Source: a phage
DNA: 64,000 nt
Direction: 5' to 3' (one strand)
Sequence record: PZ386957.1
Notes under the pieces: model-generated
Database searches by the model: none
What the model was told of the DNA's origin: nothing
What the model saw: only the letters and a program-made list of their open reading frames with translations
Shown: piece after piece, positions 43,385 to 55,030 of the stretch
Position numbering within the stretch: position 1 is the first letter of the stretch
Layout of the letters: every line of letters begins with the position of its first letter
Made by a program: the position numbers and the translations under genes

Positions 43385-43807
43385 TTATTGGTCCACTTTC
43401 AAAACAACCGCCGACATTTTACCAGCCAGTCGTTTTGGATTCTCTATAATCATTCGGCAGCATAGACCGTGATACGGTTTACCCTCTTCGATTAGATCTA
43501 CTGTCATCCCGATCCACATGTTATTGTCAGTGATTTCTAATCGATTAGGTCGGTCTTCCATTTTCAGGAAGTCGAAGATCTCTGGCAAACGAGTTTCAAT
43601 CTTATTGAATAGTTCCATCGTTTTATGTTCATCAATATGACGATCTGTTAGTCGATCAATCATGTGTGGACTAAAACGAATGAAAATATATTCACCGTAA
43701 CCATCATTCAAGCATTTTTCTTTAATCTGCGCGTTAGTCTTACGCATTTCGGTTTCGAAGAATCTGCGCAGCTTGCTACGGCGAACGTGTACGTTAATTG
43801 TTTCCAT
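43385..43807 (-). CDS. regB: RegB site-specific endoribonuclease
   Basis: ORF track 43385..43849; start refined to ATG 43807 (METINVHVRRSKLRR vs T4 MTINTEVFIRRNKLRR); conserved RLEITD and CRM.I.N.RL.GK. Confidence 0.85.
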   Translation of the reverse strand: METINVHVRRSKLRRFFETEMRKTNAQIKEKCLNDGYGEYIFIRFSPHMIDRLTDRHIDEHKTMELFNKIETRLPEIFDFLKMEDRPNRLEITDNNMWIGMTVDLIEEGKPYHGLCCRMIIENPKRLAGKMSAVVLKVDQ

Positions 43808-43808
43808 T

Positions 43809-44120
43809 TTATTCTCCTTTCTTAAACAAATTGTGAAGCCAGTATACAAACGGGATTTCTTTAAACTTGAACTTACCCATATTGAGCATATTCACGCCGA
43901 CACTTAAATCCCATAATTCTTTTGGGGTGATAATATGCCATTGATGGTCATGAAGATAAACACAACCGTGGCCTTTTGCAATAATAACATCAACCCAAAT
44001 GCCTTGTTTTGTTCTAACTTTTGCGGTAATGCCATCCCCATTATCAATGGCAGCATAAGGTTTAAACGCTTCGAAATATCGGCTTCCGTCGTAATTTGTA
44101 TAAATCAAAATTTCTTTCAT
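43809..44120 (-). CDS. hypothetical protein
   Basis: 103 aa; GGGAGA RBS; promoter at 44148-44177. Confidence 0.5.
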   Translation of the reverse strand: MKEILIYTNYDGSRYFEAFKPYAAIDNGDGITAKVRTKQGIWVDVIIAKGHGCVYLHDHQWHIITPKELWDLSVGVNMLNMGKFKFKEIPFVYWLHNLFKKGE

Positions 44121-44147
44121 TTGGTTCTCCCTTGTTTCGATGGGGGT

Positions 44148-44177
44148 ATATTACTACCCCCCGTTTCATGTTGTCAA
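44148..44177 (-). promoter_or_regulatory. sigma70-type early promoter
   Basis: Minus strand TTGACA-17/18-TAATAT inside inverted repeat GGGGGTA..TACCCCC. Confidence 0.5.
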
Positions 44178-44438
44178 CTACTTTTTCAAGAATTTTTTAA
44201 TTGCGTTCCAAAGACCTTTATTCTCAGGTTGTTTTGGTTCTTCGATCAGTGTCCATGTTCGACCGTCTAAGTGTGCACAATTTTTAAGGCAAATAAAAAT
44301 CTGGTGTCCCTTATCATCACGGATATAACCACTATTCGCAAATCTTTCATGTGGTGTATATTCATACAGTGTATTTGGTGTAATATACTTGCGGTTACTA
44401 TAAGGTGTCATCACATACATCATGGTATTAACTCCCAT
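44178..44438 (-). CDS. hypothetical small protein
   Basis: 86 aa ORF. Confidence 0.45.
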   Translation of the reverse strand: MGVNTMMYVMTPYSNRKYITPNTLYEYTPHERFANSGYIRDDKGHQIFICLKNCAHLDGRTWTLIEEPKQPENKGLWNAIKKFLKK

Positions 44439-44614
44439 TTATCACCGCGAAGATGAGAACATCCACCATCAAGAAGTATCGTAATACGATAACCTATATC
44501 ATCTTTGATGTAACCGATTGTCGGTGGATTTTCGTCGTCTCGTGTCGGGGTAAAATCATACATCTTTCCGGGCGTAATATCTTGTCCTTTATTGCTATTG
44601 GTATAAACTTGCAT
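44420..44614 (-). CDS. hypothetical small protein
   Basis: 64 aa ORF. Confidence 0.4.
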   Translation of the reverse strand: MQVYTNSNKGQDITPGKMYDFTPTRDDENPPTIGYIKDDIGYRITILLDGGCSHLRGDKWELIP

Positions 44615-44635
44615 TTTCTTAATCTCCTATATTAA

Positions 44636-45334
44636 CTAACCACGTGTATAGTGTTCCAGAACAACGGTCAGATGAATATCTTCTAATAAATCTTTCCAAA
44701 AGTCAACATATGGTTCTTCCGGCATACCGTTTTTCTTTGCCTCTTCACGCGCGAGTTTAACACGCTCGTAGAGATCTTTCAATTCTTCCCGCACATCATC
44801 AAAGGTTCTTTCGCCCATCTTACATGCTAAGATAGAATCACGTTGAGATAGCGGGAATTGTAGATCACCTGTCTGATAGATTTCAAGTAGCTGATAACCA
44901 ACACGCAGAGCATGAGAAAGATCTTTCCAGTTACTGAAATACTTTTCAGATTTGGCTACCTGTTTCTTGAGATAACCAGACAAACCCCACATCCCAACAT
45001 GATAGAATTTATCGCGATGTGTTCGGATGTATTCCCATTCTCTGGAGGATTCAATCAACATGTTACTAGGCGCGTGCACCATGTCAATAGCGCCAATATC
45101 ACCTTTACATGCCAGATTGATAAACCGTTTTAGACTGAACATATTAACGTCAATATCGTCTTTGGTGTTCTTGATACCTTGACCGCTAGTGCTTTGGTCA
45201 TAGTGTTCTTTCATCGATCCTAAGATAATTTCTTTAGCAGTCGGAACAAAGATACCACGATAATCTTTATCGGAATTTTCAGTATTAAGGCCGTATAAGT
45301 GAGATCCGAAGACCATTTTAACCATTGTATGCAT
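44636..45334 (-). CDS. Pol-beta-superfamily nucleotidyltransferase-like protein
   Basis: 232 aa; N-terminal GS-x10-DKD (GSHLYGLNTENSDKDYRG) plus downstream acidic DIDVNM, matching the minimal nucleotidyltransferase signature. Confidence 0.6.
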   Translation of the reverse strand: MHTMVKMVFGSHLYGLNTENSDKDYRGIFVPTAKEIILGSMKEHYDQSTSGQGIKNTKDDIDVNMFSLKRFINLACKGDIGAIDMVHAPSNMLIESSREWEYIRTHRDKFYHVGMWGLSGYLKKQVAKSEKYFSNWKDLSHALRVGYQLLEIYQTGDLQFPLSQRDSILACKMGERTFDDVREELKDLYERVKLAREEAKKNGMPEEPYVDFWKDLLEDIHLTVVLEHYTRG

Positions 45335-45387
45335 AATTAAACCCTCAGTTGATTAAGAGATTGCATCATATCATCATAAAAAGAAAA

Positions 45388-45410
45388 AGCCAACCCTTTC
45401 GGATTGGCTT
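45388..45410 (-). terminator. rho-independent terminator after the GrcA-like gene
   Basis: GCCAATCCGAAAGGGTTGGC hairpin followed by a U-tract on the minus strand. Confidence 0.55.
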
Positions 45411-45415
45411 AGAGT

Positions 45416-45832
45416 TTACATTGATTCCGTAAAGGTTCGAGTAATAATATCTAATTGTTGCTCACGAGTTAAGCTATTGAAGCGGCAAGCATAGCCCGAA
45501 ATTCGTACAGTTAGCGACGGGTATTTTTCAGGATTTTCCAGCGCATCCAGAAGAAGATCGCGATTCATTACGTTGACATTGATATGTTGAGCACCGCGAT
45601 TAGTTCCGATCTCACCGTCAACCATCACCGAACGGAAGCTAGTTGTGTGCAGTGCCAGCGAATCTACGTCTTCGGCAGTGATCACATGGTCTTCTGCGAA
45701 AGTCTTACTAACAATTACTTTAGCACCGATCAGTGCTTTCGGTTCTGATACCAGAATCATAGGCGCGAAGTGTCCACCAATAACAGTACCTTTATGCTCA
45801 CCTTTCATGATTTGAATTGCTTTAAATTCCAT
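45416..45832 (-). CDS. grcA: autonomous glycyl radical cofactor (GrcA/YfiD-like)
   Basis: 138 aa; C-terminus QHINVNVMNRDLLLDALENPEKYPSLTVRISGYACRFNSLTREQQLDIITRTFTES nearly identical in pattern to recalled E. coli YfiD glycyl-radical domain. Confidence 0.85.
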   Translation of the reverse strand: MEFKAIQIMKGEHKGTVIGGHFAPMILVSEPKALIGAKVIVSKTFAEDHVITAEDVDSLALHTTSFRSVMVDGEIGTNRGAQHINVNVMNRDLLLDALENPEKYPSLTVRISGYACRFNSLTREQQLDIITRTFTESM

Positions 45833-50542: not shown

Positions 50543-50690
50543 AGGGAAGGTAGCGAATCTTCCTTGTCTCCAACCTGCTAGCGGCCTAGCAAGTGAATGC
50601 TTTAGCGTACCGGATTACCCCCATACGCTGTAATAAATGCGGCTAGGTGACGTCCAAATCATTCTAACCGCGCTGTTTTTAGTTCACTAT
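50543..50690 (-). ncRNA. candidate small structured RNA (speculative)
   Basis: About 150-nt GC-rich ORF-free interval between a TATAAATA late-promoter-like element (about 50683-50690) and the terminator at 50515-50540; three predicted hairpins; no tRNA T-loop. Confidence 0.25.
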
Positions 50691-50908
50691 TATTTATATA
50701 GCTTTCTATCGCTACGTTTCCGGTCTTCTTCCTTGATACAATTAAATGCATCAAACAGACACATACCGCTGATAGTGAACATGATCAGGTTTTCGACGAT
50801 ATCCCACGTTTTAGCCCCTGTGCAGATATTCCAAACAGTCATAAAAGCAAATAGTGCAGAAGAGATCACAAGCATGATACTTGCTAAGATATAAAAAGTC
50901 ATTTTCAT
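50690..50908 (-). CDS. small membrane protein
   Basis: 72 aa, hydrophobic. Confidence 0.45.
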   Translation of the reverse strand: MKMTFYILASIMLVISSALFAFMTVWNICTGAKTWDIVENLIMFTISGMCLFDAFNCIKEEDRKRSDRKLYK

Positions 50909-51099
50909 GGTTTTACCTCAATTCTTCGATATTCATCACACATCCACGCAGTAAGCAAGAATCCCATCACATAAGCAACAAAATACGTTAATGCTTCTTC
51001 TGGTTCGGTGCTATGCGCCATCATCAGACCAGCGAGAAAGGTCTTAACAATTACATTTAAAATAATTAGCCACGCAAATAATTTCATCGTTTGCCCCAT
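50905..51099 (-). CDS. small membrane protein
   Basis: 64 aa, hydrophobic. Confidence 0.45.
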   Translation of the reverse strand: MGQTMKLFAWLIILNVIVKTFLAGLMMAHSTEPEEALTYFVAYVMGFLLTAWMCDEYRRIEVKP

Positions 51100-51308
51100 T
51101 TCGGACGAGATTTTTCAAATTTATACATTCCGTAACAATCTCGGATCATCCACGTAACAAGAGCACCAGTCAATACAGAAAGTACACAGAAAAAGTAAAA
51201 CGGTCCAGTTGCATTGTCAACATGAGCAAGCCAGGTAAAGAAAGCACATGCTAAGAACGTAAAGAACATCATAAAACACAGGAAAGCGAAATATTTTATG
51301 CTACTCAT
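51084..51308 (-). CDS. small membrane protein
   Basis: ORF track 51084..51326; start refined to ATG 51308 (MSSIKYFAFLCF). Confidence 0.45.
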   Translation of the reverse strand: MSSIKYFAFLCFMMFFTFLACAFFTWLAHVDNATGPFYFFCVLSVLTGALVTWMIRDCYGMYKFEKSRPKWGKR

Positions 51309-51411
51309 AGCGCCACCATACAACAAATCATAAGAAAGCCCAACGCAATAAGAATTGCATCAAATTTAGTGAACTCCGGTCCACCTATCAACATCATTCG
51401 TTCTATCTCGT

Positions 51412-51657
51412 TCATAGCGTACATACCCATCTGAAAGCTCCACATAAAGCGATCAGTAGACTAGGTATAAACGAGACTAAAACAAGATAACAAAAATCAT
51501 CTAAGGTAACACCGGAATAGCTACCAACTGTAATCACACCGATGATCAGACACAGAAAGAAAACAAATGCAATCAGAAACAAAGTATTGCTAAACAGTTT
51601 AGTGATCATTAGACACCCCACGACGGTCAATTTCAAAAACTTTCTTATCACCAACAA
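51412..51657 (-). CDS. small membrane protein, start uncertain
   Basis: 81 aa hydrophobic ORF overlapping the upstream gene. Confidence 0.4.
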   Translation of the reverse strand: MLVIRKFLKLTVVGCLMITKLFSNTLFLIAFVFFLCLIIGVITVGSYSGVTLDDFCYLVLVSFIPSLLIALCGAFRWVCTL

Positions 51658-51808
51658 AGCAGGTCACTACCGCCTCGTTGACTTCCGCAAATTGTTGTGT
51701 TACCCACTTAAGGTCATTGCGCATCAATGTTTTATTAATAACAAATGTTGTGCCTTTCTTATCCTTACCCATAAATTTTGCTTTAACCACATCAAAATCA
51801 TATTCCAT
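51599..51808 (-). CDS. hypothetical small protein
   Basis: 69 aa ORF with GGTGA RBS. Confidence 0.45.
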   Translation of the reverse strand: MEYDFDVVKAKFMGKDKKGTTFVINKTLMRNDLKWVTQQFAEVNEAVVTCFVGDKKVFEIDRRGVSNDH

Positions 51809-51988: not shown

Positions 51989-52054
51989 GTTGATTCTCCT
52001 CTCGTTTGTTTGTGGGGGTATCTTACTACCCCCGTTTCATGTTGTCAATTGTTT

Positions 52055-52432
52055 TTAAGAAAATTTTACTTCGTCTACAATGTCTTTCATGACATTGATT
52101 TCCATTCCGGTCAGAACACGTTGGAACATGTGCTGCACATACGCTTTCAGGTATCCATTTGATGGCTTGCTATCAAAAGTCTTTTTAGTGTAGTAGTCAT
52201 CACCGAAAGCTACTGTAATTACATTTTCGTCGTCGTTCCAAGCGATATAAGCAAATTTGCCGTTATCCCAGAAGCGAGCACTAATTGCTACTTTTGTTGA
52301 ATCGAATCCTACTTCGCTGTGAGATTCAAGAACTACTTGCGTGCCAGTTTCTTTATGAATGTAGTAGCGGGATACTAAGTCAAAGTTACGGGTGTAGTGA
52401 CATTCGAAGTTATCTTTAAACATCATCATCAT
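52055..52432 (-). CDS. hypothetical protein
   Basis: 125 aa; AGGAGA RBS; promoter at 52471-52499. Confidence 0.5.
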   Translation of the reverse strand: MMMMFKDNFECHYTRNFDLVSRYYIHKETGTQVVLESHSEVGFDSTKVAISARFWDNGKFAYIAWNDDENVITVAFGDDYYTKKTFDSKPSNGYLKAYVQHMFQRVLTGMEINVMKDIVDEVKFS

Positions 52433-52470
52433 TTTTGATTCTCCTAAGTGTGTTTCGTTTCGATGTGTGC

Positions 52471-52499
52471 ATTATGCTATAGTCGTTTATGGTTGTCAA
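52471..52499 (-). promoter_or_regulatory. sigma70-type early promoter
   Basis: Minus strand TTGACA-17-CATAAT. Confidence 0.55.
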
Positions 52500-52516
52500 C
52501 ACCTAAAAACAAAAAA

Positions 52517-52534
52517 CCCCGAAAAAATTCGGGG
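52517..52534 (-). terminator. rho-independent terminator after the 2H-phosphoesterase gene
   Basis: CCCCGAA-AAAA-TTCGGGG hairpin followed by a U-tract on the minus strand. Confidence 0.6.
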
Positions 52535-52541
52535 TATAGAA

Positions 52542-53012
52542 TTACAGTTTGGTCGTCCACTCCAGATCTAGATCTTCGACATACTCATGAGATCGGACAA
52601 TCTCTAAATCGAACTCTAGGTCAGTGCCAAATTTACGCGCACCAACATCATAAGAAAGCGTGATATGCGGTACATATTCAGGATAATCCCACGTCGCACC
52701 TAAAGCAGTTCCGATATCGTGTCTGAATTGCATGTAGTCGCTTTCAAATGCCAGCACAAGTGCATTAGTACCGGATTGAGTTTCAAACACTTTCAGATGG
52801 CATAGAGAGCCTAAGAACTTCTCCCCTTCTTCTGGGATAAACGGAACATAAACACGAGAATATAAGATAGTGCTATGCAGTTTATCACGAGGAACGGCAT
52901 TAGGAAGATCGTAGAACTCTTGCAATTTTTCAATGCGGTCTAGTGTATCCTCAGTGAATTTAACCGCCGCATATGTACCTTTAACGGATTCTTTGAACGG
53001 GGTCATAATCAA
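52542..53012 (-). CDS. 2H-phosphoesterase (two HxT/S motifs), probable Acb1/gp57B-like cyclic-nucleotide phosphodiesterase
   Basis: 156 aa; HSTI and HITL motifs at positions typical of the 2H fold; sits immediately upstream of 57A-like and gene 1 as 57B does in T4. Confidence 0.65.
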   Translation of the reverse strand: MIMTPFKESVKGTYAAVKFTEDTLDRIEKLQEFYDLPNAVPRDKLHSTILYSRVYVPFIPEEGEKFLGSLCHLKVFETQSGTNALVLAFESDYMQFRHDIGTALGATWDYPEYVPHITLSYDVGARKFGTDLEFDLEIVRSHEYVEDLDLEWTTKL

Positions 53013-53275
53013 GCCTCCGTGATCAGTTCTACTTCCTCTTTAGCGTCTTCCGCTGCTTCGTCTTTAGAGAGAAGTGCTTTTACTTCTTCAACAATTGCAT
53101 CAAGGGAAACAGTGCCATTTTCATCTGGCTGAATACCCAGAATACGCACCAATTCCATCAAGACGCGCTCACGATCTTTCAGTTGGCCTTCTAAGAATGC
53201 GGCTTTTTCTTGAGTGTCAAACAGACGTACTTTCAGGACATTAATCATTTGTTCATGCTGATTGGACATATTCAC
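53009..53275 (-). CDS. 57A: gp57A-like small chaperone (tail fibre assembly), by position
   Basis: 88 aa acidic coiled-coil ORF between the 57B-like gene and gene 1. Confidence 0.55.
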   Translation of the reverse strand: MNMSNQHEQMINVLKVRLFDTQEKAAFLEGQLKDRERVLMELVRILGIQPDENGTVSLDAIVEEVKALLSKDEAAEDAKEEVELITEA

Positions 53276-53301
53276 ATCTCCTACTTGTTGATAACTTTTT
53301 A

Positions 53302-53958
53302 TTAAATGTTCGCGAGAATCGCGCTTTCAAATTCTTCTAATGTACCATTATTTATGATAATGGTTTCACCGTCAATAGGCAAAATTCCTTTTTCGGTGGA
53401 GTGAGTCGATACAATACCAGTATCACGCTGAATATGCAACACCTTAGCACCCATAGCACGCATGAGAGCAATTTCAATAGGCTGACGAACATCAACCACT
53501 ACAAAATACCCTTCTTCATTTTTGCGCTTCATAAACTCATTCACGAAGAGATTACACCAGTAAAGCGGATTAATCAAGTTAACCATTATATCAGTACCGA
53601 GAGTGGTTAACATGAGACGAATAGACCAGACGTTATTATGTTTTTCGCCGATCTCATTAACGACCTTGTAAATCTCAACCAGACGGTCACACGTAAAGGA
53701 ACTACCGCCACACTTCGAATCTAGCATAAGAAGACACTGGATAAACCATTTATGCGCTGTGTAGGTATCAATACCTAGATCGGCTTCTCTGTCACGCCCT
53801 AGCCCATCAAAATCAAGATACGTTAGACCTAAATCCGGTTGACATTCACATAAGACTTCTTTGATCGGTGCTGCTAGTTGATAACTATGACCATCAATGA
53901 TTAACGCGGCAGTATCTTTCCCCACTCGTTTTTTACCACAAAGTGCAATCAATTTCAT
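53302..53958 (-). CDS. 1: deoxynucleoside monophosphate kinase (gp1)
   Basis: 218 aa; N-terminal P-loop MKLIALCGKKRVGKDT matches T4 gp1 MKLIFLSGVKRSGKDT. Confidence 0.85.
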   Translation of the reverse strand: MKLIALCGKKRVGKDTAALIIDGHSYQLAAPIKEVLCECQPDLGLTYLDFDGLGRDREADLGIDTYTAHKWFIQCLLMLDSKCGGSSFTCDRLVEIYKVVNEIGEKHNNVWSIRLMLTTLGTDIMVNLINPLYWCNLFVNEFMKRKNEEGYFVVVDVRQPIEIALMRAMGAKVLHIQRDTGIVSTHSTEKGILPIDGETIIINNGTLEEFESAILANI

Positions 53959-53973
53959 AATATAATCCTCGTA

Positions 53974-54564
53974 TTACTTTCTAAAAGCTGGATGCATTGC
54001 TTTGATACCCTCAACCCTCTGGCGGTCAGCCGCCTGAATTGCCGGACGAGGAACGATCAATTGTCCATCCCGTTCAATGCTCATTGTTTTAAATGGAAGA
54101 ATTGCAGTACATACCAGAGATTCATGCATATCATCGGTGTATGTTAACTCAAGTTCTCCTAATTGGGAACACCAACAACCATAAAAGTTAAATGTGCATA
54201 CAATGTTACGGCGTTCATTGTCCATCATGTGAACTTGAACGGCTTCCGGCATTGAATCCTTCCACGCAGTGGAGTTCCCGTTATTGTAGTCTACTATAGA
54301 AAGCATCCAGGTGTAAAGGTTTAGATAGCTTTCTAGATGTTCATCGACAATAAACCGGACTACCAACGGATCAAACTCTACATGACTAGAAGGATAGTCT
54401 GCCATAGCCAAACCATATTGACCAGCAACTTGTTTAGTCGGTGGAATTGTTATAGCAGGAAGTGTAACACCTTGACAGTTTAAAGTAAAGCCTTTTGTTA
54501 GTTGACCATCTGGAATGGTTATTTGCCAGTTACTAGGATTAGCATAGTTAAAGAGATTAGACAT
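53974..54564 (-). CDS. 3: tail completion/sheath stabiliser protein (gp3), by synteny
   Basis: 196 aa ORF between gene 1 and gene 2 in T4 order; sequence not verified from memory. Confidence 0.55.
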   Translation of the reverse strand: MSNLFNYANPSNWQITIPDGQLTKGFTLNCQGVTLPAITIPPTKQVAGQYGLAMADYPSSHVEFDPLVVRFIVDEHLESYLNLYTWMLSIVDYNNGNSTAWKDSMPEAVQVHMMDNERRNIVCTFNFYGCWCSQLGELELTYTDDMHESLVCTAILPFKTMSIERDGQLIVPRPAIQAADRQRVEGIKAMHPAFRK

Positions 54565-54769
54565 GTTAATACCTTCTTAAATGAAAATATTTATCAAATA
54601 GTATCGCTTCGCGAGTGCCGGAGGCACTATTTTTGTTATTATTTTTGATGATTAATTATTAATCAAACGTGTATCTTTCAGGATAATAAAGATCACCGTT
54701 TTGGTGCTTTTTTAATCACTACCTGTAAATTTATACAGTAATAAATAAAAGGGATAAACCGTTAGAGTA

Positions 54770-55030
54770 TTGCTTATGTCAGAAGATATTTTGTTAAAAC
54801 TCTATGATCGATTAGATAACGAGTTAGCAACATTACGTGGTGAAGTTCTCTATTTGTCTAAATGTAATCAGGATCTGCTTAAGCAGATTGCAGAAAGGGA
54901 TGACCAAATAAAATCCCTTTCCGGTGCATTACGTGATCGTGACAAGGCATTAGAGATTTTACAGCGTGTAACCAATAAAGAAGAATTGAAAGATTTTCTA
55001 CATGGTTATGCTCACGCCATCGATCTATAA
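54770..55030 (+). CDS. hypothetical coiled-coil protein
   Basis: 86 aa plus-strand ORF between genes 3 and 2; AATAAATA late-promoter-like element about 20 nt upstream, hairpin terminator just downstream; weak RBS. Confidence 0.4.
   Translation: MLMSEDILLKLYDRLDNELATLRGEVLYLSKCNQDLLKQIAERDDQIKSLSGALRDRDKALEILQRVTNKEELKDFLHGYAHAIDL

Follow-up and report, generated by a model that had tools for sequence, protein, structure and literature searches.

Acb1, a nuclease known to be widespread in T4-like phages, degrades the cyclic nucleotides that activate the bacterial CBASS defence, and a short minus-strand gene beside the tail-fibre chaperone gene 57A raises the question of whether it encodes this nuclease or another enzyme of the 2H phosphoesterase fold. 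The window, i.e., the whole stretch of 64,000 nucleotides that was analysed (record PZ386957.1), is part of the genome of a Krischvirus (an RB49-like coliphage): 75 phage records, Krischvirus RB49 and KFS-EC included, match its segment 51800..54600 with 90–99% nucleotide identity. The genes that define the locus, in the order of transcription, are as follows.

53974..54564, minus strand: gene 3, part of the 3-1-57A-acb1 order.
53302..53958, minus strand: gene 1 (dNMP kinase), the synteny anchor (Pfam DNMK, E=8.9e-68).
53009..53269, minus strand: 57A, tail-fibre chaperone (Pfam GP57, 27.8 bits; phrog_1002, E=2.5e-25; annotated as such in KFS-EC).
52542..53006, minus strand: coding sequence of acb1 (the 57B orthologue), 154 aa plus TAA stop, start codon ATG 53006..53004.
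53014..53018, minus strand: Shine-Dalgarno sequence GGAGG of acb1, read from the sequence and lying within the last codons of 57A.

The order 3-1-57A-acb1 on the minus strand is identical to the 3-1-57A-57B order of T4 and, as in T4, acb1 comes directly after 57A, the two genes abutting or overlapping. The original prediction, which saw here a candidate Acb1-type enzyme in the 57B position, correctly placed it next to 57A and gene 1; it described the gene as lying upstream of them, however, whereas in the direction of transcription acb1 lies downstream. From the evidence that follows we are highly confident that the gene is the Krischvirus (RB49-like) orthologue of T4 57B/acb1, encoding a small metal-independent 2H phosphodiesterase whose activity is assigned by homology.

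The open reading frame extends over 52542..53012 on the minus strand, and would encode 156 amino acids if TTG 53012 were taken as the start, as was originally done. The frame is real, but its start most likely lies elsewhere. The minus-strand letters around the start, ACGGAGGCTTGATTATGACC, contain the Shine-Dalgarno sequence, the TGA stop codon of 57A (53011..53009) and ATG 53006. The gap between GGAGG and the start is 7 nt for ATG 53006 and only 1 nt for TTG 53012, and RefSeq annotates the 154-aa form of the same frame in the KFS-EC orthologue. Because of this spacing and this annotation, translation almost certainly begins at ATG 53006 and yields a protein of 154 residues, and TTG 53012 is rejected on the same two grounds.

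In a profile search, the protein matches the Pfam family "Anti-CBASS protein Acb1" (PF23474) at E=1.5e-51 and 174.4 bits (cut-off, 27 bits), across model positions 1–143 of 144, and the same family is carried by all 64 of its database homologues. By BLASTP, T4 gp57B/Acb1 (taken from NC_000866) aligns with it over the full length of 154 residues at 47% identity (E=1e-47). Among all PDB entries, the sole sequence match is Acb1 of Erwinia phage FBB1 (7T26 and 7T27), which aligns end to end with E=1.9e-43. Close relatives of the gene bear another name. The protein belongs to phrog_755 (E=6e-55), a PHROGs family labelled "RNA ligase", and RefSeq gives the same name to the orthologues in KFS-EC and T4; there are also weak Pfam matches to 2_5_RNA_ligase2 (PF13563, 19.4 bits) and LigT_PEase (PF02834, 14.1 bits). 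Taken at face value, these labels would make the protein a generic LigT-type 2H enzyme (2',3'-cyclic phosphodiesterase/2'-5' RNA ligase) that serves RNA or tRNA repair and is not an immune-signal nuclease. However, both LigT-type scores fall below their gathering scores of 27 and 23.3, respectively, against 174 bits for Acb1, and the T4 protein NP_049750.1, equally labelled "RNA ligase", is the experimentally defined Acb1. The name given to the close relatives reflects a distant LigT similarity that is below threshold here.

The fold separates the two identities further. An AlphaFold2 model, computed from an alignment of 43 database homologues that all carry PF23474, has a pLDDT of 90.2, a pTM of 0.83 and an alternating strand/helix pattern. 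In a Foldseek search of the PDB with this predicted model, the first-ranked structure is apo FBB1 Acb1 (7T26), with a TM-score of 0.86 normalised to the query and 0.97 normalised to the target, and an rmsd of 0.9 Å over 138 columns at 52% identity; the second is the same enzyme with the product of 3'3'-cGAMP (7T27; target-normalised TM-score of 0.93). LigT-type enzymes also appear in this search, as one would expect if the protein were one of them, yet at a TM-score of about 0.5, an rmsd of 7–8 Å and 10–13% identity, as against 0.97 and 0.9 Å for Acb1. Enzymes of this type (e.g., E. coli LigT, 5LDI) share the 2H fold and two HxT/S motifs with the window protein; they differ in being larger, in lacking the C-terminal lid of Acb1, and in acting on RNA ends rather than on cyclic oligonucleotides. 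The Acb1-specific ligand contacts and the lid are conserved in the window protein, as described below. Given the Pfam thresholds and the fold scores we reject the RNA-ligase identity, which we consider very improbable, and return to Acb1. That identity is borne out by the Pfam family, by the full-length alignment to T4 Acb1, and by the best fold match, so that profile and structure searches both detect the similarity on which the original prediction depended.

The active-site features of the protein map to the following segments.

52869..52877, minus strand: catalytic motif 1, H44-S45-T46 (HxT), equivalent to H44/T46 of T4 and FBB1; both catalytic residues invariant in the 43 homologues.
52659..52667, minus strand: catalytic motif 2, H114-I115-T116 (HxT), equivalent to T4 H113/T115; both catalytic residues invariant in the 43 homologues.
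52545..52574, minus strand: C-terminal lid, about residues 145–154 (DLDLEWTTKL) and including W150, placed by alignment to T4 and FBB1.

As originally noticed, the protein has two H-x-T/S motifs, HSTI (from H44) and HITL (from H114); they are 70 residues apart and there are no others. In T4 Acb1 the catalytic tetrad HxT/HxT consists of H44, T46, H113, and T115, the bases stack on Tyr12, Trp74, Phe107, and Trp147, and E141 contacts the adenine N6 (PMC9117128). The corresponding stacking residues of the window protein are Y12, F74, Y108, and W150, and its E144 takes the place of T4 E141. Invariant across the 43 homologues are G10, Y12, H44, T46, S50, H114, T116, L117, Y119, and E141. The C-terminal lid (FBB1 residues 145–152) closes over the ligand (PMC9117128), and its role, together with that of W147 and E141, is also treated in bioRxiv 10.1101/2025.08.21.671373. 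The tail EDLDLEWTTKL aligns with the lids of FBB1 and T4, W150 being the equivalent of T4 W147, and the low AlphaFold2 confidence at residues 151–154 is as expected of a flexible lid. In sum, all the catalytic and ligand-contact residues named for Acb1 in PMC9117128 are kept or conservatively replaced.

Relative to T4 Acb1 (gp57B, NP_049750.1), the founding anti-CBASS nuclease and a member of the same Pfam family (152 aa versus 154 aa here), the HxT/HxT tetrad, the adenine-reading glutamate, and the C-terminal tryptophan lid are common to both proteins; T4 W74 and F107 are replaced by Phe and Tyr, and loop lengths differ by 1 and 2 residues. The closest solved structure, FBB1 Acb1, is 52–54% identical and has the same pair, F74 and a Tyr at the position of T4 F107, in an enzyme that was crystallised and is active. 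The window protein differs from the FBB1 construct (G8–D152) by about nine extra N-terminal residues and by the insertion of G127-T128, a two-residue loop insertion that is seen relative to both T4 and FBB1. A more distant relative, and the third-ranked structure in the Foldseek search, is the 2H phosphodiesterase of Burkholderia phage BCSR5 (PDE-9; 9Q2G/9Q2Y), which has the 2H fold and cleaves cyclic-nucleotide immune signals; it is 17% identical to the window protein, with a TM-score of about 0.7. BCSR5 PDE-9 and T4 Acb1 are both assigned to "structural group 3", but the lid of PDE-9 is N-terminal rather than C-terminal and PDE-9 spares 2'3'-c-di-AMP (bioRxiv 10.1101/2025.08.21.671373).

The published biochemistry of Acb1 indicates what such an active site would do. 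Acb1 is metal-independent: it strains the ring of its substrate so that the 2'-OH of adenosine attacks the 3'-5' bond, and the linear 3'-phosphate product is formed via a cyclic phosphate (PMC9117128). Its substrates are cyclic di- and trinucleotides that contain at least one adenosine, and neither cGG nor cA4 is cleaved; cleavage of both 3'3'-cGAMP and cAAA was seen with T4 Acb1 and with each of nine further homologues, and T4 Δacb1 suffered a more than 300-fold plating loss on a CBASS host (PMC9117128). The lysate screen in the same study by Hobbs et al. 2022 (PMC9117128) included an RB49-type phage, vB_EcoM-G2494, whose Acb1 is identical to the window protein at 152 of 154 residues. By homology, we infer that during infection the window enzyme would bind cyclic di- and trinucleotide signals with at least one adenosine (3'3'-cGAMP, cUA, cAAA, and cAAG) in a U-shaped pocket, with the bases stacked on Y12, F74, Y108, and W150, and with E144 reading the adenine N6. 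The C-terminal lid would shut over the ligand, and the tetrad H44-x-T46/H114-x-T116 would cut the 3'-5' bond located 3' of adenosine via a 2',3'-cyclic phosphate intermediate. With the signal removed, the CBASS effectors would stay inactive and abortive infection would be prevented.

An Acb1-family enzyme of the Krischvirus lineage might also have a shifted substrate range, such that its main target lies outside the T4 set; it could, for example, spare 2'3'-c-di-AMP and give no Panoptes trigger, or prefer the cA3 made by type III CRISPR systems. The protein has diverged enough to allow the thought, with 47% identity to T4 Acb1 and 47–54% to the tested enzymes, the W74F and F107Y replacements and the two-residue loop insertion. 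In a neighbouring 2H clade, moreover, selectivity is set by the core and not by the lid, and one phage phosphodiesterase avoids 2'3'-c-di-AMP (bioRxiv 10.1101/2025.08.21.671373). However, hydrolysis of 3'3'-cGAMP takes place in crystals of FBB1 Acb1, which has the same F74 and tyrosine, each of the nine additional homologues tested in PMC9117128 cleaved cGAMP as well as cAAA, and no contact residue points to a shift, every named one being kept or conservatively swapped. We therefore regard a shifted range as improbable, though marginally less so than the RNA-ligase identity. If it were true in the form that spares the 2'3'-c-di-AMP decoy, the phage would defeat CBASS without tripping Panoptes-type guards. 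For the preferred reading, an enzyme with the T4-type substrate set, the opposite may hold: Acb1 also degrades 2'3'-c-di-AMP, and by doing so it sets off the guard system Panoptes (bioRxiv 10.1101/2025.08.21.671373); the window enzyme may likewise do both.

How the gene would be transcribed was examined by a promoter scan of 52000..54800, which covered sigma-70-like sites, the late-type (T)ATAAATA, the MotA-box TGCTT(T/C)A, and TTGAC. The relevant signals are listed here.

53347..53375, minus strand: candidate 57A-acb1 promoter, TTGACG-17-AATAAT, at the 3' end of gene 1 and overlapping an ATAAATA at 53355..53349.
52506..52535, minus strand: intrinsic terminator, ACCCCGAA-TTTT-TTCGGGGT followed by TTTTTTGTTTTT, directly after the acb1 stop.
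52471..52499, minus strand: early-type promoter, TTGACA-17-CATAAT (11/12), for the next gene (52055..52432) and not that of acb1.

The original prediction gave acb1 a promoter and a terminator of its own, and these two claims fared differently. On the minus strand within 57A there is neither a sigma-70-like site (matching at least 9 of 12 positions) nor a late-type ATAAATA; the TTGACA at 53220 is not accompanied by an acceptable −10 element, and between the starts of 57A and acb1 this strand offers nothing usable. A promoter specific to acb1 is rejected for this reason, and the gene begins immediately behind its neighbour, 2 nt separating the 57A stop from the acb1 ATG. Because of this 2-nt gap and the lack of a promoter motif inside 57A, 57A and acb1 probably share a transcript that starts from a promoter within the 3' end of gene 1. 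The candidate at 53375..53347 matches the consensus at 10 of 12 positions, and KFS-EC has the identical sequence. For RB49, in which neither middle-mode promoters nor motA are known, an early and a late consensus have been described (PMC1524935), and the candidate is compatible with both. On the transcribed strand the acb1 terminator precedes the early-type promoter at 52499..52471, which is also conserved in KFS-EC and is probably what had been taken for the acb1 promoter.

The terminator was correctly foreseen. Its hairpin (52535..52516, minus strand) has an 8-bp stem with five G-C pairs and is followed by the T-run TTTTTTGTTTTT; it folds at −13.4 kcal/mol (z = −3.9), and none of 200 shuffled sequences was as stable. 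The terminator is conserved in KFS-EC, where the two changes, an indel and a substitution, fall in the loop. The transcript of 57A and acb1 would end at this strong terminator (52535..52506), and acb1 would be translated from its own Shine-Dalgarno sequence.

Between the window and KFS-EC, acb1 shows seven synonymous differences and one non-synonymous difference, with a dN/dS of 0.04, and by this measure it is a maintained, functional gene under purifying selection. The synonymous divergence from KFS-EC is uneven along the locus: dS is 0.20–0.27 in gene 1 and 57A and 0.04–0.07 in acb1 and the 125-aa gene that follows it, these values being based on small counts. The abruptness of the change at the 57A/acb1 junction suggests a recombination boundary there, i.e., a mosaic exchange of the module on the acb1 side among Krischviruses.

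The synteny with T4 ends on that side. In T4, the gene next to acb1 is ipI, whereas here it is the 125-aa gene, and a dmd homologue comes two genes after that. The latter (51599..51808, minus strand; Pfam Dmd, 57.8 bits; phrog_2102, E=3e-29) is the third gene downstream of acb1. Dmd is an antitoxin against RnlA/LsoA, ipI encodes an anti-GmrSD protein, and dmd of T4 sits elsewhere in the T4 genome. Since a Dmd homologue lies downstream here and ipI follows acb1 in T4, acb1 in the Krischvirus lineage occupies a different small anti-defence neighbourhood than in T4.

Several other genes of this region were noted. The 125-aa gene between acb1 and dmd (52055..52432, minus strand) belongs to phrog_15253 (E=8e-86) and has a sub-threshold Pfam match to Gp30.7 (17.3 bits); it differs from its KFS-EC counterpart by three synonymous and three non-synonymous changes, and its position makes it a candidate anti-defence gene. 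Downstream of dmd, at 50690..51657 on the minus strand, are five or six tiny, strongly hydrophobic open reading frames of 46–81 aa with head-to-tail overlaps, which fall into the function-unknown families phrog_15282, 15290, 15717, and 15168 and look like small membrane proteins. On the other side of the locus, between gene 3 and gene 2 and on the opposite strand (54770..55030, plus strand), an 86-aa open reading frame of coiled-coil-like sequence matches phrog_17832 (E=8e-56); it is annotated as hypothetical in KFS-EC, and T4 has no annotated gene there.

The window was also searched for a second anti-CBASS gene. With T4 Vs.4 (Acb2) as the query, tblastn at E<=0.01 gave no match within the 64 kb of the window, out of a genome of roughly 165 kb. 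The counterparts of T4 vs.1, regB, vs.6, tk, and tk.4 were located by tblastn at 40.8–45.8 kb. The interval that in T4 holds vs.3-vs.4-vs.5, flanked by regB and vs.6, here contains (43800..45420, minus strand) three small unknown open reading frames and a nucleotidyltransferase gene. The latter (44636..45334, minus strand) encodes a 232-aa protein of the RlaP family (Pol-beta type; Pfam PF10127, E=3e-14), and it is the only match in a Pfam scan of the open reading frames at the vs.3-vs.5 position. Thus, neither the Vs.4 search of the window nor the Pfam scan at this position found a second anti-CBASS gene.

By tblastn, 1,476 phage records contain a homologue of acb1, and in 52 of these the identity is 99% or above. 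The identical protein is present on 43 public contigs, mostly under the name "hypothetical protein", and the window protein falls into a cluster of 79 members, of which the named ones are all "hypothetical protein". Among deposited relatives the gene is also annotated in other forms, as two fragments of 64 and 82 aa in at least one (Enterobacteria phage Cognac) and as 143 aa in another (vB_Eco_TB34). These cases may represent disruption of acb1, which would fit dispensability in the absence of CBASS, or they may be sequencing or annotation errors. No paper on Acb1 that also names RB49 or Krischvirus turned up in a literature search.

Acb1 was defined in 2022 by Hobbs et al. (PMC9117128), and the acb1 gene described here belongs to an established family and sits where that family is expected, i.e., it is the re-discovery of a known gene, with little significance beyond correct annotation. 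The Krischvirus genes now labelled "hypothetical protein" or "RNA ligase" can safely become Acb1-family anti-CBASS phosphodiesterase. For phage therapy and host range, the presence of acb1 suggests resistance to CBASS systems of the cGAMP and cA3 types, together with a possible sensitivity to guard systems, such as Panoptes, that sense the activity of Acb1.
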